Below are positions 2,226 to 31,983 of a DNA stretch of 39,348 nt, piece after piece (position 1 is the first letter of the stretch; each line of letters begins with the position of its first letter). The DNA comes from Armatimonadota bacterium (GTDB taxonomy: Bacteria > Armatimonadota > Fimbriimonadia > Fimbriimonadales > GBS-DC). Where the stretch lies: positions 1-39,348 of the forward strand of contig PSLB01000005.1 of NCBI GenBank assembly GCA_040289385.1. The letters run 5' to 3'. Both the position numbers and the translations under genes were made by a program. The notes under the pieces are model-generated. The model had not been told where the DNA came from and did no database searches. It saw nothing but the letters and a program-made list of their open reading frames with translations.

Positions 2226-4412
2226 ATGCACCAGCTGAAACTGCTATCAGAGGAAACCCCTTCGGAGCCAACGCCCCTCACAGTGGAATCGCTCCTGTTT
2301 GGGCATGACCCTACCCCGCACCTCATCGCAGTGGAGGCGATTGGCGGACTAATCCGACTCTATCGGCGCGAGGGCGGCCGGCTCATTACCGAAGAGGAAC
2401 CTTTTGAACCGTGGCTTCTCAGTGACCAAAAGATGGAGATGCCCGATGTGCACTGGCAAGCACTGGAAGGCGACTTCGGTGCGCGTCCCACTTTGCGCTA
2501 TCTCGCACGCTGTTCCCATCGTGAGGCATTCGATACACTCCGACGCGCCCTTCGCGAAGCGCATCGCGAAATTTTAGCCTTCGGAAGCCTGCCACGCCAA
2601 TACCTGATGCTGTTGGGCAAGACCCTCTTCAAAGGAATGGCGTTCAATGACCTTCGCCGCCTCCAACTCGACATCGAAACCAGCACGCTCACCAGCGATC
2701 AGGCAGAGTCGCAAATTTTGATGATTGCCCTCAGTGACAATCGGGGCTACGAGGAGATTTTGGAAGGGGATGAGGCGACGCTCCTCAATACGCTTACCGA
2801 ACGCATCGTGCAGTTAGACCCCGATGTGATCGAGGGACACAATCTTTTTGGGTTCGACCTGCCCTATTTGTATCGGCGTGCACAGGAGTTGGGCATCGCA
2901 TTAGCCTGGGGGCGCGACGGATCGGTGCTACGGTTCGGAAGCCCACGCGCATGTGTTATCGGAGCCAACAACCGTACCTTCACCCCAGCTTTCGTTCACG
3001 GACGCCATCTGCTTGACACCTACCTTGCTGTCCAGCGATTCGATATCTGGCGAGGCGACCTCGAAAGCTACGGACTAAAAGAATCGGCGCAACAGCTCGG
3101 CATCGCTTCGGAGGAGCGAATCTATCTGGAGCGCCAGCAAATCCCTCATCTTTGGCGTACCGACCCCGACACCGTGCGCCGTTATTGCCTGCAGGATGTC
3201 CATGAAACACGCTTGCTGGCGGAACTGGTCTTACCCACCGAGTTCTATCAGTGCCAAATGCTTCCCGACACGCTCCAGAATCTGGCGACCATCGGCACGG
3301 GCGAGAAGGCGAACCTGCTGTTTGTGCGTGCTTACCTGATGCAAGGACATGCGGTGCCCACGCCAGAGCCACCGCGCGACTACCCCGGTGGGTATACCGA
3401 GGTGCGGTTCGTGGGGCGTATCGAACATGTGGTCAAAGCCGATGTGGAAAGCCTGTACCCCAGCGTGATGTTGTATTACCGCATCAAGCCGAAGGTAGAC
3501 ACCCTCGATGTGTTTCTGCCGTTGTTGGCAGAACTGCGTCAGCGCCGACTGGATGCTAAAACGCGCGCTCGCGCCACCATCGGCACTGAATCGGCATATT
3601 GGGACGGTCTACAAGGCTCGTTCAAGATCCTGATTAACTCATTTTATGGCTATTTGGGGGCTCCGTTTCATTTCAACGATTACGATGCAGCAGAGGCGGT
3701 AACGCTCAAGGGTCAGGAGTTGGTCAAACAGATTGCCCAGCAGATAGAAGCACTCGGCGGTCGCGTCATCGAAATCGATACCGATGGAGTCTACTTTCAG
3801 CCGCCCCCCCATGGGCAGACCGAAGATCAAGAGCGTGTGTTTGTAGAGACGGTGGGCGCCATTCTGCCCGAAGGCATTCGTCTGGTTCAAGATGGACGCT
3901 ATGCCGTGATGCTCTCCCTGAAAACCAAGAACTATGTGTTGTTGAGCTACGATGGAAAGCGCATCTTTAAGGGAGCTTCTCTCCGCTCACGCGCCGATGA
4001 ACGGTTCGGACGCGAGTTCATCACCCGTGCCGTCGAATGGCTTCTGATGAACAAGCCCGAACAGGTTCCGCAAGAGTATCTCCGATTGGCACACGCCCTG
4101 CTCAACAGAGAAGTGCCTATCGAAGACCTTTGCCGACGCGAACGAATCACCGAAAAGAGCAAACTGCCCCACCATCCCCTGCGTAACCTGGCATCCCGGT
4201 TTCAGGTAGGCGACTACATCATGGTCTATCGTAAGCGTGACGGCACGCTGGGACTTCTTGAAGAGTATGCAAACGACGCCGATGTCGAGCACTATGTCGA
4301 GAAGCTCTACAAGTTTGCTCAACGCTTGGAACCCCTCTTCCCTGATTTTGAGCGTGCGTTTCCCAAGCCCCAAATGCTGATTCACTCTGCCAATCAGCCC
4401 AGCTTGTTTTAG
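2226..4412 (+). CDS. polB: Family-B DNA polymerase with 3'-5' exonuclease
   Basis: Exo motifs DIET, HNLFGFD and YCLQD; polymerase motifs DVESLYPS, KILINSFYG and DTDG; C-terminal QPSLF. Confidence 0.92.
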   Translation: MHQLKLLSEETPSEPTPLTVESLLFGHDPTPHLIAVEAIGGLIRLYRREGGRLITEEEPFEPWLLSDQKMEMPDVHWQALEGDFGARPTLRYLARCSHREAFDTLRRALREAHREILAFGSLPRQYLMLLGKTLFKGMAFNDLRRLQLDIETSTLTSDQAESQILMIALSDNRGYEEILEGDEATLLNTLTERIVQLDPDVIEGHNLFGFDLPYLYRRAQELGIALAWGRDGSVLRFGSPRACVIGANNRTFTPAFVHGRHLLDTYLAVQRFDIWRGDLESYGLKESAQQLGIASEERIYLERQQIPHLWRTDPDTVRRYCLQDVHETRLLAELVLPTEFYQCQMLPDTLQNLATIGTGEKANLLFVRAYLMQGHAVPTPEPPRDYPGGYTEVRFVGRIEHVVKADVESLYPSVMLYYRIKPKVDTLDVFLPLLAELRQRRLDAKTRARATIGTESAYWDGLQGSFKILINSFYGYLGAPFHFNDYDAAEAVTLKGQELVKQIAQQIEALGGRVIEIDTDGVYFQPPPHGQTEDQERVFVETVGAILPEGIRLVQDGRYAVMLSLKTKNYVLLSYDGKRIFKGASLRSRADERFGREFITRAVEWLLMNKPEQVPQEYLRLAHALLNREVPIEDLCRRERITEKSKLPHHPLRNLASRFQVGDYIMVYRKRDGTLGLLEEYANDADVEHYVEKLYKFAQRLEPLFPDFERAFPKPQMLIHSANQPSLF

Positions 4413-22657: not shown

Positions 22658-24117
22658 CAAAGCACCACCCCCAATGCCGATAACGCCAGCTTGAGCATCC
22701 AGCCAACCCATATAGCCACCCCCAACGAGATAACGAACATCGCAAGGGCGGCCTTCCAGCCACGCTCTTTGAGCGTCACCAAAAACTGCGCCACGCACGG
22801 CACAAATAAGGTCAGCACCACTGCCACAATCAAAACCTGATTGCCTGTCAGCAAGCCTGCCTGCTGAAGGTCGTACAGCCCCGCTGCACCGTAATCGCGT
22901 CGGAAAAACCCGAACAAAAACGCCACGCCCGCAGAATCGGGCAAGCCAAGCAACCCCGTTATCGGCGCAATCGCACGCAACGCCCAGTCGAACAAACCCG
23001 TTAGCTGTCCCACCCAGATCAACACGCTGGCAAGCAGAAAAAGCGGAAACACCTCCAAAAAGTACCAGTGAAGTCGTGCCATCGTCTTCAATAACACATT
23101 GCTCAGGCTGGGTAGGCGTATCGGGGGAAGCTCCATGTAAAACGGCATCGGGTTTCCAGGAATCACGCGCGCCGCAATCCAGCCCGCCGTCAGAAACACG
23201 CCCACCAACACCCCCATCCAGATCAAAAGCCCTGTTGGATACCGCGCCAGTAAAGCCAGAACCACCCCCAGCTGCGCCGAACACGGAATCGTGAGCGTCA
23301 ATAAAAAGGTGGCTAACACCCGCTCGCGACGCGTCTCCAACACGCGGGTCACCATCGTCGCCATCGTGTCGCAGCCGAACCCCAACACAATCGGGATCAC
23401 CGCACGCCCATTCAGCCCTAACCCTTTGAAGGCACGATCAATCAACATCGCCAAACGCGGCAGATAACCGCTATCCTCTAATACCGCGAAAACCAGAAAA
23501 AAGAAGGTCACTATCGGCAAAATCAGCGCAACCGCATAGGTAACCCCCAGGGTCCAAACACCGTACTCCCCTACCAATAACTCCTGTATCGCCTTCCAAG
23601 GAACAAGCCCCCGCACAAACGATTCTACTGCAGGATTAATCCAACCCCCGAAGAGGTCTTCCTCAATCCACCCCACAACCGTGCCCGCCCCAAACACCCC
23701 CACAAACTGATACAGCCCAAAGTAAAGCACCAACGCCAGAATCGGAAAGCCTGTCCACGGGTTCATACAAAGCCAACCCAGCCATTCTGCAACCGAATGG
23801 GCGCGTTCGCCAAATTGCGCTTGCAACACCTGCTGGCTAATCTGCTGACCTACCTGTTGGCGCTGATGCTCGATAGCCCAGCCGATGGGAGAGTCCATCT
23901 GTGTTTTTACGGTGTTCAGCACGCTCCGAATCTGCTCCAGTGTTGCCGAGGTCTCCTGTTGGCGTACCATCTGCCAAATTTCGTCGTCCTCTTGCAAAAG
24001 CAGCAACGCAAGGGTATGCTTTCCAAGCGGGTAGTCGCCCCGAAGGAACTCCGAAATTTGGCGAATGGCTTCCTCAATCTCAGCCGGATAGGTGAGCGTG
24101 GCATGTAAGGCGCTCAT
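22657..24117 (-). CDS. feoB: FeoB C-terminal part (helical linker and membrane domain)
   Basis: LEDSGYLPRLA, GLNGRAVIPIVLGFGC, IPCSAQLG, FYMELPPIRLP and LFVPCVA. Confidence 0.93.
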   Translation of the reverse strand: MSALHATLTYPAEIEEAIRQISEFLRGDYPLGKHTLALLLLQEDDEIWQMVRQQETSATLEQIRSVLNTVKTQMDSPIGWAIEHQRQQVGQQISQQVLQAQFGERAHSVAEWLGWLCMNPWTGFPILALVLYFGLYQFVGVFGAGTVVGWIEEDLFGGWINPAVESFVRGLVPWKAIQELLVGEYGVWTLGVTYAVALILPIVTFFFLVFAVLEDSGYLPRLAMLIDRAFKGLGLNGRAVIPIVLGFGCDTMATMVTRVLETRRERVLATFLLTLTIPCSAQLGVVLALLARYPTGLLIWMGVLVGVFLTAGWIAARVIPGNPMPFYMELPPIRLPSLSNVLLKTMARLHWYFLEVFPLFLLASVLIWVGQLTGLFDWALRAIAPITGLLGLPDSAGVAFLFGFFRRDYGAAGLYDLQQAGLLTGNQVLIVAVVLTLFVPCVAQFLVTLKERGWKAALAMFVISLGVAIWVGWMLKLALSALGVVL

Positions 24118-24637
24118 GAATATGCTCCTTGAGGAGATCCACCCCCTGACCTGAGAGGCACACGGTCGGAATGACCTTGATGCCCAAATGCTGAGTAAGC
24201 CGATCGAGGTCGATGTGCAATCCTGCGCGCTCCAACTCGTCCATCATGTTCAAGACCAGCACGACTTCGAGCCCCGTCTCTATGAGCTGCAAGGCCAGGG
24301 GCAAGGAGCGTGCCAGATTTTTCGCATCTACGACATGCAGAACCAAGCTCGGTCGCTCGTAAAGTAGCATGCGTCGCACCACGCGCTCCTCCTCGGTAAT
24401 CGGGTTCAGCGAATAGAGCCCCGGCGCATCAATAACTGTATAGCGATGCCCCCTGTAGTACATCGTGCCGCGCTCCACCTCGACAGTGGTGCCAGGATAG
24501 TTCGAAACCGTAACATAGCGTCCGGTCAGTCGGTGGAACAGCAGACTCTTGCCCACATTCGGATTGCCGACAATCAGCACGGTGGGGCTATCCGCTTCCG
24601 ACCTGCGTTGCGTCCGAAACTTCATAAGGGTCTCCAT
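24080..24637 (-). CDS. feoB: FeoB small GTPase domain, separate ORF
   Basis: GNPNVGKS, VSNYPGTTVE, DAPG and LNMMD. Confidence 0.92.
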   Translation of the reverse strand: METLMKFRTQRRSEADSPTVLIVGNPNVGKSLLFHRLTGRYVTVSNYPGTTVEVERGTMYYRGHRYTVIDAPGLYSLNPITEEERVVRRMLLYERPSLVLHVVDAKNLARSLPLALQLIETGLEVVLVLNMMDELERAGLHIDLDRLTQHLGIKVIPTVCLSGQGVDLLKEHIHERLTCHAHLSG

Positions 24638-27628: not shown

Positions 27629-27713
27629 GCGCGGGTGGTGGAATTGGTAGACACGCATGGTTGAGGGCCATGTGGGATTACCCGTGTGGGTTCGAGTCCC
27701 ACCCCGCGCACCA
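27629..27713 (+). tRNA. tRNA-Leu(GAG)
   Basis: GCGCGGG/CCCGCGC acceptor stem, CATGG-TTGAGGG-CCATG anticodon arm, long variable arm, GGTTCGAGTCC and encoded CCA. Confidence 0.96.
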
Positions 27714-27716
27714 GTG

Positions 27717-27788
27717 GGGCGGTTAGCTCAGTGGCAGAGCGCCTCGTTCACACCGAGGAGGTCGTTGGTTCAAGTCCAACACCGCCCA
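27717..27788 (+). tRNA. tRNA-Val(CAC), CCA not encoded
   Basis: GGGCGGT/ACCGCCC acceptor stem, TAGCTCAGTGGCAGAGC D arm, CCTCG-TTCACAC-CGAGG anticodon arm and GGTTCAAGTCC. Confidence 0.96.
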
Positions 27789-27792
27789 CTCT

Positions 27793-29043
27793 CTAAGGTG
27801 TGCCCAGCCACTCGTTCACAAAGCGCGTGAGCTGGCCGTACCATCCCAGATAGATTAGTGCTAAGGCAATCCCGCCCCCCAGCAAGCCAAGCAAAACCGC
27901 CAAGCGTATAAGCCCTGCAGGAACCATGCGAAGTGCATGCTGGCTGCGTTCTTGATAGTAGTCTGCCAGCCGTTGAAGCATCTCCACCGCCTGACCTGCC
28001 TGAATGCCAGTGGTAACGAGAGCGACCTCGTCTGGGGGGAACATGCCGGAGCGTGCGAGTGCGCTATCGAGATGCTCGGCGCGCTCGCCGTGCGCCAAGT
28101 TGACCGACGCCAGACTGCCTGCAATAGCGGGATTGGGCACCGTGCGCGATGCGGTCTCCCACACCGTGGCAGGGGGCAAGCCTACCGCAGAGAGGCGTGT
28201 CAGGTGGTACAGCAACATCTGCAACGATTGCGCTCGCACCCAGTCGGCAAAGCCCCAAACCAGTGGAGTAGAAAGCTGGAACCGTCCGCGAATCGCCTCG
28301 AAACGCATCGCCAACGCCCAGAGCCCCCACGCACACAACATCCCCACCAACAGCGGCACCCCAATCCGCACAAACGCAGTCCACCAGCCCTGAAAAATCA
28401 ATCGGAGTGCCTCTCCATAAGTTTCTGTGCCTGTGAATCGTCCGAGAGCATTAATCAGCCCGAAACCGAATGGAGCCACCACAGGCAAGAGGACTATCGT
28501 TATCCACAGACAGCCCTTAGCAGGAATCGACCAGAGCTGGATCGAACGCCACTGCTCGTAGTATTGCACCAGCCGTTCGAGAGCCCCTGGAAGGTAGCCT
28601 CCCAGTTCGCCTGCGTAGAGCGTGTGGCACACGAAGGCAGGAAACAGGCGCGGATATTGCTGCATCGCCTGCGAGACGGGGACTCCTTGCGCGGCTTTTT
28701 GAGCGATCTCGTGGCACGCCTGTACCAGCTCTTTGTGAGCGATCCGATTCGCCACCTGCCGAAACGATTCCGAAAGAGGATAGCCCGCTTTCACCAGGGC
28801 GCGCAGTTGAACCAGTAGGTGCGCCATCTTTGCGGGTGGCACTGCCGAGCTTTCCCAGTCGGGTGTAGCAGATGGAGCTTGCGTTGTGGACGGTGTGGGC
28901 GCGTCTGGAATGCGGACGACCTGCTGGACCATCAACCCGTGTTGGCGTAGGGCGTTCTGCACGGCGCGTGCATCGAGCGCCTGCATCGTGCCTGTGTGAA
29001 CCTGCCCACGCGAGTCAACTGCTTGGTAGCGAAAGTTGGGCAT
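27793..29043 (-). CDS. Type II secretion F / PilC family inner-membrane platform protein
   Basis: MPNFRYQAVDSRG, LVKAGYPL, AGELGGYLPGALERL, two repeated domains and three TM helices. Confidence 0.88.
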   Translation of the reverse strand: MPNFRYQAVDSRGQVHTGTMQALDARAVQNALRQHGLMVQQVVRIPDAPTPSTTQAPSATPDWESSAVPPAKMAHLLVQLRALVKAGYPLSESFRQVANRIAHKELVQACHEIAQKAAQGVPVSQAMQQYPRLFPAFVCHTLYAGELGGYLPGALERLVQYYEQWRSIQLWSIPAKGCLWITIVLLPVVAPFGFGLINALGRFTGTETYGEALRLIFQGWWTAFVRIGVPLLVGMLCAWGLWALAMRFEAIRGRFQLSTPLVWGFADWVRAQSLQMLLYHLTRLSAVGLPPATVWETASRTVPNPAIAGSLASVNLAHGERAEHLDSALARSGMFPPDEVALVTTGIQAGQAVEMLQRLADYYQERSQHALRMVPAGLIRLAVLLGLLGGGIALALIYLGWYGQLTRFVNEWLGTP

Positions 29044-29527
29044 CGAAGCGTTTGACCTCCTGTTGTTTCAGGGTGGGGTTCTGCAGAAGCGTTTGGAGGG
29101 GCGTGCCGTCGGGGAGGATCAGGTCGGGAGTCAGCTCGGCTAAGGGGATCAGCACGAACGCACGTGTCCGCATTCGGGGATGGGGAAGGGTCAGCATAGG
29201 GGTGTCGAGGCATAGGTTCTCATAGAGGATAATATCGATGTCCAAAGTGCGTGGGAGCCAGCGTCCGGTGTTGGGGGGGCGTCCCATTTGACGCTCGATG
29301 TGCTTGACCGTCTCCAGCAGGGCGAGCGGTTCCAGAGGCGTCTCTGCCCACAGCCCCACATTCAGGTATGGGCGCGGGTCGGGCGTCTCGCCGACAGGGG
29401 CAGTCTCATAGACCGACGATACCTGAATGGGCACAATCCCGTAATGTGGCAGAAGCTGCACTCCCTCCTGCAAATGGCGCCAGCGATCCCCCAGATTGGA
29501 GCCCAAGCTCAAGTGGACCCGTACCAC
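29015..29527 (-). CDS. folK: 2-amino-4-hydroxy-6-hydroxymethyldihydropteridine diphosphokinase
   Basis: LSLGSNLGDR, SSVYETAP, PRTLDIDI and LPHPRMRTRAFVLIPL. Confidence 0.95.
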   Translation of the reverse strand: MVRVHLSLGSNLGDRWRHLQEGVQLLPHYGIVPIQVSSVYETAPVGETPDPRPYLNVGLWAETPLEPLALLETVKHIERQMGRPPNTGRWLPRTLDIDIILYENLCLDTPMLTLPHPRMRTRAFVLIPLAELTPDLILPDGTPLQTLLQNPTLKQQEVKRFDAQLSLPSS

Positions 29528-29570
29528 AAGATAGAGTATACCCCCAGCCTCCCAGCGCTCTTAGCCCGAG

Positions 29571-29616
29571 AATTCGGGAATTTGGGGGTAAATTCCCCCC
29601 CAAATTCCCCCGAATT
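29571..29616. repeat. Long imperfect inverted repeat between divergent promoters
   Basis: AATTCGGGAATTTGGGGG ... CCCCCAAATTCCCCCGAATT. Confidence 0.7.
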
Positions 29617-29628
29617 TGCCCGTAACCC

Positions 29629-29658
29629 TTGACAAATGCCCTCTCGATGTGCTATAAT
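29629..29658 (+). promoter_or_regulatory. Consensus sigma70 promoter
   Basis: TTGACA (29629-29634), 18 nt, TATAAT (29653-29658) with an extended TGn. Confidence 0.85.
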
Positions 29659-29661
29659 ATA

Positions 29662-29987
29662 GGCATCGTCGGGGCAACCCGATGGCATCGCCCGAGTGCA
29701 GTCAGGAATGCCCTGCTGTCGGGAGCCGAGCGGCGACTCGGGAGGCGCGTTGCAATCGCAACACCCTCACCCAAAGAGCCGAACGGAGCAATGCAGGAAG
29801 GTCTGCGCCCCAGTTAGACCGCCTGCAAGCGGCAGATAGGATCTGCGCTGGACAGACCGTTCTCTCATAGAGAGAAACGGACGCCTTCGGATCGGGGACA
29901 ACCTCGGTTAAGGCTCCGCAAGCGGAACCGCGCGGTCTGCACCTGCAGAGCCCAAAAAGGCTCCTGATGGAGCGCTCGGGCATTTTT
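29662..29987 (+). ncRNA. Candidate structured non-coding RNA or long leader, family not recognised
   Basis: Starts at the promoter +1 region with a GCAA-tetraloop hairpin. 10-bp and 7-bp long-range helices close several internal hairpins. Ends at ATTTTT. No convincing ORF. Confidence 0.7.
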
Positions 29988-30025
29988 CGGTTTCGGGTAT
30001 CCTTCCCCCTGTAGGAGGAGCAACG

Positions 30026-31231
30026 ATGCAAAACACACTAAAAGCACTTCGCAACGTCCAGTCAGACCGATTCTTTATCGTCTCTCTCTATTTGAGTTTG
30101 ACTCCGCAAGAGCGTGCTACACGCCCCCCGATGTACCAGACTCGCCTCAAGACGATGCAAAACCAACTGCGCCATTGGCTGGCAGACCACCCCATGGAAC
30201 CCAGCCAACGCGAATCGGTGGAGAACGATTTTAAGCGGATGATGGACTTTATCGACGAGCCGACGAACCTGTTGGGCGAGAACTCTCTGCCCGTGCGTGG
30301 GCTCGCCCTCTTCTCCTGCTCGGCGGAGGGGCTTTTCGAGGCAGTGCGCCTGCCATATGTCGAGCGCAATACACTCGTGGTAGACCGTACCCCCTATATT
30401 CGCAGACTGTTCGCAGTGGAGGCAGATTTCGGGGTTAACCTTGTGGTGGTGTTCGATCACCGAGACGTCCACTTCTATCAGATCGATATTCACGGCATTC
30501 GCGAGCTGGAGTCGTTGCGTTTGGTGCGCGATCGGGAGATCCTCCCACCAGGAGTACACGGGGTGCGTACTCCGTCGGGCATGCGCGCCCTCCACGGGAT
30601 GGGGGAACGCAATGTGCAAATGCTCAAACAGCATGAGCAACAGCAGCACCTGCGCCAGATTGCCGAGACTCTCCTACAGTTGCGCCGGGCACACCCGTAC
30701 GATCGCCTGCTGATCGCCGCCCCAGACGACTTAGCCAATGCACTCCCCAGCTATCTGCATGACTATGTGCGGCGCACTTTTGCAGGGGGTATCGCCGCCC
30801 ACGACAAGATGCCCCTTAATCTGCTGTACGAGCGTGTGTTAGACAAACTCATGGAGCTGGACCGCGAACAGGAAAATCGGCTTCTCCAAGAGTTTCGGGA
30901 GAGTATCCCGCATCTGGCACTGTCTGGAATCGAGCCCGTGCTAAAGGCTTTAGAATGGGGGAATGTGCGTGTGTTGTTGTACGACACCGATTACACCCTA
31001 CCCGGCTGTGTCTACTACCCGTCAGGTTTGCTGGGGTTACATCCCGAACATGCCCCCAAAGGCACCGAGCTGGTCTGGAGATTGCCCGACATTGTGGATA
31101 CGGTTGTGGAACGGGCTCTGGAACAAGGGGCACAGGTCGAGGCGGTGCATGCACCCTCAGCTAAATCGGAGATCCACGGTGTCAGCGCCATTCTGCGCTA
31201 CCCCATGAGCCAAACCGCAACGAGCGAATAG
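30026..31231 (+). CDS. Bacterial aeRF1-like protein (baeRF superfamily)
   Basis: VSLYL, GLALFSC, PYIRRL, DRLLIAAP, VLKALEWGNVRVLL, ERALEQGAQV and GVSAILRY, covering the three-domain eRF1/Pelota layout; AGGAGG RBS. Confidence 0.82.
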   Translation: MQNTLKALRNVQSDRFFIVSLYLSLTPQERATRPPMYQTRLKTMQNQLRHWLADHPMEPSQRESVENDFKRMMDFIDEPTNLLGENSLPVRGLALFSCSAEGLFEAVRLPYVERNTLVVDRTPYIRRLFAVEADFGVNLVVVFDHRDVHFYQIDIHGIRELESLRLVRDREILPPGVHGVRTPSGMRALHGMGERNVQMLKQHEQQQHLRQIAETLLQLRRAHPYDRLLIAAPDDLANALPSYLHDYVRRTFAGGIAAHDKMPLNLLYERVLDKLMELDREQENRLLQEFRESIPHLALSGIEPVLKALEWGNVRVLLYDTDYTLPGCVYYPSGLLGLHPEHAPKGTELVWRLPDIVDTVVERALEQGAQVEAVHAPSAKSEIHGVSAILRYPMSQTATSE

Positions 31232-31365
31232 AAAAGACTCACTGAAAGAGGTTATGATTTCCTGCGGCGCTGTTATTGGTGTAAGCCCCCCTGCTACCTG
31301 CCGAGCCGTCCACCGAAGCAGACCTGCAAAGAACAGATCACCGTCGCTGTAAGCCGTGACGTCCT

Positions 31366-31449
31366 CCCCTCAATCAATTGAGGGGCATCCTTATTCAGGA
31401 TGCACGCATGGCGGGGGTCTGTGTATCCCTCCAATGAATTGCGGGGGAT
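31366..31449. repeat. Palindromes with an AAT(G/C)AATT core
   Basis: CCCCTCAATCAATTGAGGGG (31366-31385) and ATCCCTCCAATGAATTGCGGGGGAT (31425-31449); a related copy is at 39282-39302. Confidence 0.55.
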
Positions 31450-31536
31450 TACAGCCCCCTCGCACTCCTCCGTTTTTCTAAAACCAGCCAGTTTTTCATC
31501 TGTGCCTAGGATACCTGAACAAAGTTTAAGGCGGGA

Positions 31537-31983
31537 TTAAGAAGGCTTGCGCGGGGCGATTCGACGCAGGAGCCAGAATGCCATCATCAGGATACCGCCT
31601 GTATCGATGCCTATATCCATCAAGGTTGAGGTGCGCCCTGGCACGAACGATTGCTGGAACTCATCGAGGAGCGCGCGCAAAAAGGAAGTACCAACCGCCC
31701 ACTGCAGGGCACGCACTGGCGGCATTTGGAGGCTATGGTGGAACATGCCATACCCTAAATAGGTCAAGATGGCGAACCCGCAGAAGTGCGCCCCCTTACG
31801 CACCACGAAGTTGAGTGCAGAAAGCATCTCAGGGGTGAACTGCTCGGCTAGGGCGGGGCTAATCGCCCGCAGAAGCTGGAGCAACCACGCCGAAGAGTTC
31901 TCAGAGCTACCGATTCGCGAGGAAAGGACCACATAGAGCCCAATCCATCCCAACCATGCGAATAGCCATCTCCAGCGCCTCAT
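31537..31983 (-). CDS. VanZ-family membrane protein
   Basis: VRKGAHF and DEFQQSFVPGRTSTLMDIGIDTGG; ATG 31983. Confidence 0.88.
   Translation of the reverse strand: MRRWRWLFAWLGWIGLYVVLSSRIGSSENSSAWLLQLLRAISPALAEQFTPEMLSALNFVVRKGAHFCGFAILTYLGYGMFHHSLQMPPVRALQWAVGTSFLRALLDEFQQSFVPGRTSTLMDIGIDTGGILMMAFWLLRRIAPRKPS

Follow-up and report, generated by a model that had tools for sequence, protein, structure and literature searches.

To our knowledge, only a few large, intricately folded bacterial RNAs without an assigned function have been described. Those large bacterial RNAs that have been solved opened new biology, including catalysis, ribonucleoprotein machines and RNA-only assemblies, and recent cryogenic-electron microscopy work on ornate bacterial RNAs has reportedly revealed RNA-only assemblies. 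OLE RNA of the Bacillota is an orphan, highly structured and abundant non-coding RNA of extremophiles, stable and built from many covarying helices. Here we describe a structured RNA of about 320 nucleotides (nt) encoded by an Armatimonadota bacterium on contig PSLB01000005.1 (assembly GCA_040289385.1, positions 1-39,348; we refer to this whole stretch of 39,348 bases as the window). The RNA is present in a single copy per genome in one family of Fimbriimonadales (Armatimonadota) and, judged by sequence comparison, it represents a new class among the loose group of orphan ornate bacterial RNAs, with no match in Rfam 15. On balance, we favour the view that this locus encodes, as a gene in its own right, an abundant and compact non-coding RNA of a new class, acting in trans and probably serving as a scaffold or partner of a conserved factor.

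The limits of the gene are set by the following elements:
29629-29634, plus strand: -35 hexamer TTGACA, scoring 12/12 as a promoter together with the -10 element
29650-29658, plus strand: extended -10 element TGcTATAAT (TATAAT at 29653-29658), preceded by an 18-nt spacer that ends in TGC
29665-29987, plus strand: the RNA, about 320 nt, its 5′ end inferred from promoter geometry and its 3′ end from the terminator U-tract

The promoter of the RNA gene is of a near-consensus sigma-70 type. A first-pass annotation of the same DNA had called it the only normally spaced TTGACA/TATAAT promoter, and the pattern TTGACA-N16-18-TATAAT indeed has a single match in the window (29629-29658; 0 expected from 100 shuffles). 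The spacer motif GATGTGn ahead of the extended -10 element is common to four other promoters of the same genome (G000), in which TTGACA-N11-GATGTGnTATAAT with at most one mismatch has five matches, compared with 0 in a reversed control. These five sites (window 29629-29658, C45:58-87, C132:42927-42956, C135:2996-3025 and C159:4256-4285) precede the RNA, a tRNA-Met gene, a small RNA candidate and two genes whose products begin like signal peptides; the tRNA-Met gene lies 11 nt downstream of its promoter. This promoter type thus serves tRNA-Met and other, presumably highly expressed, genes as well as the RNA. Relatives such as G009 hold many near-identical 31-37-nt copies of the promoter sequence.

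At the other end, a scan of 29000-31600 for promoters and terminators listed a terminator-like site at 29963-29980. The ATTTTT noted by the first-pass annotation does follow the closing helix, P1; because P1 is followed by A and five U, this helix doubles as the stem of an intrinsic terminator. An own promoter and an own intrinsic terminator, conserved together with the RNA as expected of an independent stable-RNA gene, are found in 47 of 47 retained copies, both being conditions for retention. The next real open reading frame (ORF) starts at 30026, and the ORFs of 60-110 amino acids (aa) that cover the RNA locus are spurious. We also considered, and rejected, a small-protein gene, given that the 47 copies share no ORF whose start is consistent.

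The evidence for structure comes from comparison of these copies. Starting from 63 loci (25 from genomes and 38 from metagenomes), 11 were dropped as incomplete and others as duplicates, and a promoter and a terminator match were required, leaving 47 distinct full-length copies of 308-334 nt. In a 47-row MAFFT alignment (A4), we tested a 75-pair structure limited to helices whose columns are in register. Pairing holds in 97.1% of 3,454 cells, and both partners vary in 41 of the 75 pairs; none of five measures was reached in any of 500 shuffles. When partners were slid by 1-3 columns, pairing dropped to 32-41%, with 8-16 two-sided pairs. These slid controls, together with a long arm (P4) that changes its sequence while keeping its shape, leave little doubt about the RNA structure. 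RNAalifold on 17 copies gave 28 compensatory pairs among 69. Collecting homologues and examining covariation, the check that the first-pass annotation had proposed for its structured RNA, thus bears the proposal out.

The strand assigned by that annotation also holds. The plus strand of 29660-29990 folds at -161 kcal/mol (z = -5.75; 0 of 100 shuffles as good), compared with -153.4 kcal/mol (z = -4.17) for the minus strand, and pairing across the alignment is 97.1% as read on the plus strand versus 86.0% on the minus strand. The G-U pairs, which make up 423 cells, fit the plus strand only.

The RNA has about 14 helices, arranged as two multi-helix domains within P1 and P2, together with invariant unpaired purines. 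Its elements, all on the plus strand, are:
29664-29687, plus strand: P0, a 10-bp 5′ hairpin outside the closing helix; 99.1% paired, 5 of 10 pairs compensatory
29690-29699, plus strand: 5′ strand of the closing helix P1, GCCCGAGTGC; 100% paired, 3 pairs compensatory
29701-29707 with 29962-29968, plus strand: P2, GTCAGGA with TCCTGAT, from the window fold and a strand listing
29712-29721 with 29830-29840, plus strand: P3, CCTGCTGTCG with CGGCAG-A-TAGG; 97.9% paired, 3 pairs compensatory
29722-29725, plus strand: junction GGAG of GGGAG; G29722, G29723 and A29724 each conserved to 95% or more and left unpaired by the tested structure
29726-29786, plus strand: P4, a long variable arm of about 45-65 nt in the copies, from individual folds; 9 of 11 pairs compensatory (2 helices)
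29792-29827, plus strand: P5, a stem-loop with two helices tested in the alignment and an 11-13-nt loop (29805-29815)
29842-29949, plus strand: domain II, closed by Pa and Pb and containing P7, P8 and P9
29842-29847 with 29944-29949, plus strand: Pa, covarying by strand listing
29853-29859 with 29933-29939, plus strand: Pb, CAGACCG with CGGTCTG, covarying by strand listing
29862-29866 with 29870-29874, plus strand: P7, in domain II
29879-29917, plus strand: P8, in domain II
29890-29909, plus strand: P8b, hairpin GATCGGGG-ACAA-CCTCGGTT (29890-29897 with 29902-29909), the most conserved element
29922-29924 with 29929-29931, plus strand: P9, GCG with CGC, supported by relatives
29950-29961, plus strand: P10, a mini-hairpin whose loop is rich in A; its sequence is CYGAAAAGG in 42 of 47 copies and CCCAAAAAG in the window
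29972-29987, plus strand: 3′ strand of P1, GCGCTCGGGC (29972-29981), then A and TTTTT; terminator stem and U-tract

P3 is a long-range helix that closes domain I (P3-P5) and includes compensatory changes such as CG in 24 copies and UA in 21. Domain I also holds the junction GGAG-YAAUG and the P4 arm, in which very different sequences adopt one hairpin shape in individual folds, with a tip loop that is GNRA in 31 of 47 copies and GCCG in 13. By contrast with this variability, the core of the P5 loop, GCCCCAG, is invariant in 47 of 47 copies, as are the U-G and G-U wobbles of P8b. The P8b loop is GCAA in 43 copies and GNRA in 46, and the hairpin is also kept in the probable relatives from families f2 and f4 described below. 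The P0 loop, GCAA in the window and GAAA in 36 of 47 copies, is likewise GNRA in 46.

For P2, Pa and Pb, support comes from listings of paired strands rather than from column statistics; P2 has no per-column statistic because its columns are out of register in the MAFFT alignment. Covarying strand pairs of P2 include GGGAG/CUCCC and GGAGAAGUC/GGCUUCUCC, and those of Pa and Pb include CAGAGCG/CGCUCUG, AUCGCC/GGCGAU, CCGCUU/GAGCGG and others. Swapping partners between copies in a duplex test shifted the energy modestly (-19.3 versus -16.4 kcal/mol for Pa/Pb and -8.8 versus -7.1 for P2); since the shift is modest and many copies share strands, covariation of these helices rests on the listed compensatory variants.

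Much of the helix plan drawn by eye in the first-pass annotation survives this comparison. The GCAA-capped hairpin and the closing helices GCCCGAGTGC/GCGCTCGGGC and GTCAGGA/TCCTGAT are present where it had placed them, the hairpin spanning 29664-29687. Among its internal stems, GTTGC/GCAAC, TGCAG/CTGCA with GTCT/GACC, CTCTC/GAGAG, GCCT/AGGC and CAGACCG/CGGTCTG have been retained and show covariation among relatives. Conservation does not extend to the local GCAGAT/ATCTGC stem, its bases forming the 3′ strand of P3 (29712-21 with 29830-40) instead, and TCCGC/GCGGA is ambiguous, relatives supporting the shorter GCG/CGC pairing (29922-24/29929-31). Three additions to that plan are the long-range helix P3, the hairpin GATCGGGG/CCTCGGTT, which is invariant, and the basal part of the variable arm.

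No known RNA family accounts for the locus, in agreement with the first-pass annotation, which had not recognised it. Scanned with Rfam 15 covariance models at gathering score, the window contains two tRNAs (27629-27788) and no match at the RNA; at E <= 10, no family, 6S included, matches the RNA within 29500-30100. Nine homologous loci at E <= 10 and two divergent relatives at E <= 1 gave nothing at the position of the RNA. RNase P RNA (G000:C2:10311-10653, 276 bits), transfer-messenger RNA (tmRNA; C205, 181 bits) and the large signal recognition particle (SRP) RNA (C81, 164 bits) of this genome are all encoded elsewhere. A Y-RNA was also considered and discarded, as no TROVE/Ro protein was found in the genome, which is 99% complete. 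A search of full-text literature, with supplementary tables outside its scope, turned up no publication describing a structured RNA from Armatimonadetes, and PMC11109978 does not mention the phylum.

The E <= 10 scan did return weak microRNA-type and other chance matches, all of them on an inverted repeat upstream of the promoter. This repeat, a perfect 13-nt one (GGGAATTTGGGGG/CCCCCAAATTCCC) at 29576-29609, lies just upstream of the promoter and downstream of a minus-strand HPPK gene, of which it may be the terminator; partial copies occur on four other contigs.

Searching with the RNA by blastn gave matches of 69-77% identity in genomes of the family; 22 of 41 genomes matched, 21 of them among the 24 genomes of family f1. 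Of 22 records that carry the RNA, 22 are Fimbriimonadales or Armatimonadota metagenome-assembled genomes. A covariance model of the 247-position core (R1), which does not include P0, P1 and P2, matches once per genome, at 130-262 bits, in 24 of the 28 relatives from the family, in addition to the window's own genome. A copy in G011 is cut by a contig end, and the form in G005, with covariation in P1, is reduced to 275 nt. Beyond the family, R1 found nothing in f3 (0/98), f5 (0/20) or f2 (0/3), one weak match in f4 and, among 150 genomes sampled from elsewhere in the phylum, nothing beyond a 19-bit fragment.

Longer RNAs in families f4 (G027, L057:1316-1671) and f2 (G032, L153:388-799; G029, L159 reverse strand) are probably distant relatives, as indicated by shared motifs and their order. 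All three have a strong promoter of the same type and, equally far from it, a 5′ hairpin with a GAAA cap. All three also share the GCAA hairpin, preceded at about 50 nt by a motif resembling GAUAGGRA (GGUAGGAA in G027). In G027 and G032, where both ends can be set, the RNAs are about 356-412 nt long and end in a terminator-like hairpin. The combination of promoter and GAAA hairpin is specific, found in 17 of 228 genomes versus 2 control matches; in f3 it occurs in 2 of 175 genomes, and ORFs follow both. The f2 form used as a blastn query recovered one further f2 genome only. A 16-mer pattern of P8b occurs in 26 of 175 f3 genomes and 1 of 20 f5 genomes; as 27 of 27 fetched loci lie inside ORFs (152-828 aa) and have none of the other motifs, we regard these as chance matches.

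Public sequencing runs support the conclusion that the RNA is abundant, library depth being no proof of a discrete transcript. Eight runs from two studies, all labelled hot springs metagenome, matched the RNA, and contigs of four runs from one study were placed on the locus. Two of these are size-fractionated metatranscriptome runs (X3 and X8), the contigs of which are 90-99% alike on 29677-29996: X3 has one 236-nt contig on the RNA at a depth of 2,210, and X8 has 102 short contigs with a summed depth of up to 266,803. The two DNA runs of the same study have a depth of 4-41 at the RNA. On a second contig, the variable arm is that of a sister species. In the flanks (29300-29668 and 29997-30500), DNA-run contigs are present and RNA-library contigs are absent, although an uncovered part gives no evidence either way.

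The first-pass annotation had joined the RNA to the gene that follows it, a Balon-like gene starting at 30026, as a possible RNA-plus-hibernation-factor module. Gene order speaks against such a link. The Balon-like gene adjoins the RNA in only 4 of 17 RNA-bearing loci, all in genus g1 and including the window. Of 28 family relatives, 23 have a Balon orthologue (64-87% identity), on other contigs outside g1; in the one-contig genome G013, it lies at 1.27 Mb and the RNA at 2.39 Mb, 1.1 Mb apart. Among 20 downstream ORFs, 9 of which were scanned against Pfam, ten are of about 477 aa, and both of those scanned have T2SSE and MshEN domains (pilB-like). The others comprise the Balon-like gene, two metallo-beta-lactamase+Ada genes, an ABC membrane protein, a GT2 glycosyltransferase and three ORFs without a Pfam match. 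At least five gene types thus follow the RNA, besides the ORFs that lack a Pfam match, and some of the downstream genes are on the opposite strand. Upstream genes vary too, and no conserved protein gene stands beside the RNA among the loci examined. Because the downstream genes vary and the Balon orthologue is distant, the module is not supported. We infer that the RNA is neither a leader nor a partner of the Balon-family gene and that their adjacency is a genus-level accident of gene order.

In two genomes of genus g4, a tRNA gene (L033:1274-1347, L043:1268-1341) lies about 70-80 nt upstream of the RNA promoter, and in the window two tRNAs (27629-27788) lie 1.8 kb upstream of the RNA. A T2SS-F/PilC-like gene is encoded on the minus strand at 27796-29043, 0.6 kb upstream of the RNA, and a PilB-like ATPase gene directly follows the RNA in g4; these may be the remnant of an older pilus or secretion cluster neighbourhood.

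These features suggest how the gene might work. Transcription from the sigma-70-type promoter with its extended -10 element should end at an intrinsic terminator built from the RNA's own P1. The transcript folds into the P0 GNRA hairpin followed by domains I and II, enclosed by P1 and P2, and would act in trans as a stable, folded molecule. Its likeliest role would be to scaffold or bind a conserved protein or RNA, or to associate with copies of itself in an RNA-only assembly. GNRA loops on P0 and P8b (46 of 47 copies each) and invariant unpaired purines are hallmarks of a tertiary fold, and the P8b hairpin, the GCCCCAG loop and the A-rich junctions could be recognition or tertiary-contact surfaces. 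The best candidate for a recognition element is P8b, which is kept even in the distant forms. A bolder version, which we consider rather unlikely, would place the RNA at the core of a kind of RNA machine not seen before, belonging to thermophilic Armatimonadota and comparable in kind to RNase P RNA or to the ornate RNAs recently reported as cages; it would be a new ribozyme or an RNA-only particle that assembles itself, with the GCCCCAG loop and the wobble-containing GCAA hairpin forming its active or assembly surface.

Several points weigh against a stand-alone, trans-acting gene. The mechanism is read from the anatomy of the RNA alone. The shuffle controls overstate significance because the copies are related. 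R1 found nothing in two genomes of the family, G008 (94% complete) and G021 (85% complete), and the known range is narrow, being confined to one bacterial order, so the function may be dispensable or lineage-specific. The metatranscriptome contigs show neither starts, ends nor strand, both RNA runs belong to one study, and DNA may be present in RNA libraries. Finally, the terminator ends 38 nt before the start codon of the Balon-like ORF, which has a GGAGGAG ribosome-binding site, and about 45 nt before a pilB-like ORF in g4; with no consensus promoter between terminator and downstream gene (the scan of 29000-31600 found no promoter-like site at 29659-30025), read-through is possible.

This last arrangement is what a cis-acting leader or attenuator would present, in which the way the RNA folds, whether or not a ligand or temperature provides an input, sets read-through of the P1 terminator into the downstream gene. 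We think this improbable: the same gene does not lie downstream throughout, as it changes with the genus and is sometimes on the opposite strand, and P1, the terminator stem, is 100% paired in all copies. No conserved antiterminator pairing was noticed, although a systematic search was not made, and no known riboswitch model matches the window, the locus or the nine homologous loci. It is equally unlikely, in our judgement, that the RNA is a catalyst, self-processing or acting on another substrate, with the conserved junctions and the GCCCCAG loop as its active site. About 14 helices in two domains is comparable to the size and complexity of RNase P RNA or small group I introns; three GNRA-capped helices, the invariant unpaired purines and the lack of a conserved adjoining protein gene would also suit a ribozyme. 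However, the sequence gives no sign of cleavage or ligation, no known ribozyme model matches, and the RNA-library contigs span most of the RNA without a fixed-site joint in this species, the sole listed joint being a replaced stretch that matches the variable arm of the sister species.

The two remaining alternatives would have the RNA bind a known regulator or polymerase, and we give both very little weight. A divergent 6S/Ms1-like RNA that sequesters RNA polymerase, suggested in the first-pass annotation, would likewise be abundant, driven by a strong promoter and paired between its 5′ and 3′ ends in a closing helix, and its length would be similar to that of Ms1, which is about 300 nt. The fold, however, is multi-branched, with no long rod and no central bubble resembling an open promoter; 6S has no match at the locus at E <= 10; and the genome has a separate full-length 6S-like match of about 180 nt (G000:C3:2866-3045, minus strand, 35 bits versus a 46.4-bit cut-off), its only one. 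Among 29 family genomes, 21 have a single such match each; two of these exceed the gathering score and the others score 25-38 bits. The 6S RNA of this clade seems too divergent for the curated Rfam threshold. For a CsrB/RsmZ-type sponge that titrates CsrA through repeated GGA motifs, a similarly remote prospect, there is a CsrA gene in this genome and there are about 11 GGA triplets in the RNA, several of them conserved (GGGAG, GGAGUAAUG, UAGGAAC and CGGAUCGG). CsrA sites of known sponges lie in hairpin loops, whereas no conserved GGA is found in a hairpin loop here, the loops being GNRA, GCGCCCCAGCAA, GAGG-type and CGAAAAG, and Csr RNAs, with their simple repeated hairpins, do not resemble the strongly covarying long-range architecture seen here. 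We retain a stand-alone gene for a trans-acting RNA as the favoured reading.

The gene downstream of the RNA in the window is not part of it:
30026-31231, plus strand: homologue of Balon-family (bacterial aeRF1-like) ribosome-hibernation factors, 401 aa

The first-pass annotation had described its product as aeRF1-like, and sequence profiles and a predicted fold place it in the Balon family, which predicts a role in hibernation. The ORF matches baeRF_family10 (31.9 bits) and Host_attach (31.4 bits), both above cut-off. A profile built from 20 homologues aligns with solved Balon MSMEG_1130 along the entire protein (E 6.2e-31), better than with aRF1 or eRF1 (about 1e-13); a single-sequence phmmer search against the PDB found nothing. 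The best fold match to its AlphaFold model (predicted local distance difference test, pLDDT, 85.4) is Balon 8v9j_z, with template modelling (TM) scores of 0.67/0.73, and identity to solved Balons is 13-20%. Both GGQ and NIKS are absent from the ORF, and passages of PMC10901736 describe Balon as lacking both and as often encoded in stress operons. The Pfam matches, the Balon profile, the fold and the absence of GGQ and NIKS together make the identification stand. In its full-length profile match, its best fold match and the lack of both motifs the protein is like Balon; its gene differs in that it is beside neither raiA nor the stress genes named in those passages.

Other features of the genome are recorded here for completeness. 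The small RNA candidate named above, of about 140 nt at G000:C135 ~3026-3170 (L156:1531-1680), follows TTGACA-N11-GATGGGGTATAAT, ends in a GC hairpin and a T-run, and has no Rfam match at gathering score. An Rfam 'Transposase-2 RNA' match (L157:1203-1263, minus strand, on G000:C159; 47.1 bits versus a cut-off of 42.7) lies near a strong promoter. In the window, FeoB is encoded on the minus strand at 22660-24637 by two overlapping ORFs, one for the N-terminal GTPase (24083-24637, 185 aa) and one for the cytosolic helical, Gate and C-terminal regions (22660-24117, 486 aa), reflecting either a split gene or a frameshift.

The RNA offers a clean new case for the study of ornate bacterial RNAs, with a defined single-copy gene, about 14 covarying helices, invariant single-stranded motifs and high depth in RNA libraries. 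Its origin in a thermophile implies that it should be stable and suited to structure determination. As metagenome-assembled genomes are all that is known of these bacteria, elements of this kind can be discovered only by starting from sequence. With a covariance model, annotators could mark the locus, and the spurious 60-110-aa ORFs would no longer be called. The negative result is useful as well, in that a tempting module of an RNA and a hibernation factor appears to be a gene-order accident in one genus.

Comparison with known systems places the RNA as follows. With 6S RNA (RF00013) it shares abundance, a strong promoter and paired 5′ and 3′ ends, but 6S RNA is a rod of about 180 nt with a central bubble, whereas the RNA described here is multi-branched and 320 nt long. 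RNase P RNA (RF00010) is of the same size class, is a stable RNA with its own promoter and has multiple domains with GNRA loops; the genuine RNase P RNA of this genome is the one on C2, and the locus of our RNA has no match to the model. ROOL, GOLLD and raiA-motif RNAs have similarly complex, conserved and GNRA-rich folds. The RNA matches none of them in Rfam, is smaller than ROOL or GOLLD and, in contrast to this group, is single-copy, confined to one order, not prophage-associated and not beside raiA. From OLE RNA it differs in phylum, in being about half the size and in its neighbours, oapA being the protein gene next to OLE and no conserved protein gene adjoining the RNA here, and it does not match the OLE family in Rfam. 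It resembles OLE in being an orphan, structured and apparently abundant RNA of an extremophile host.

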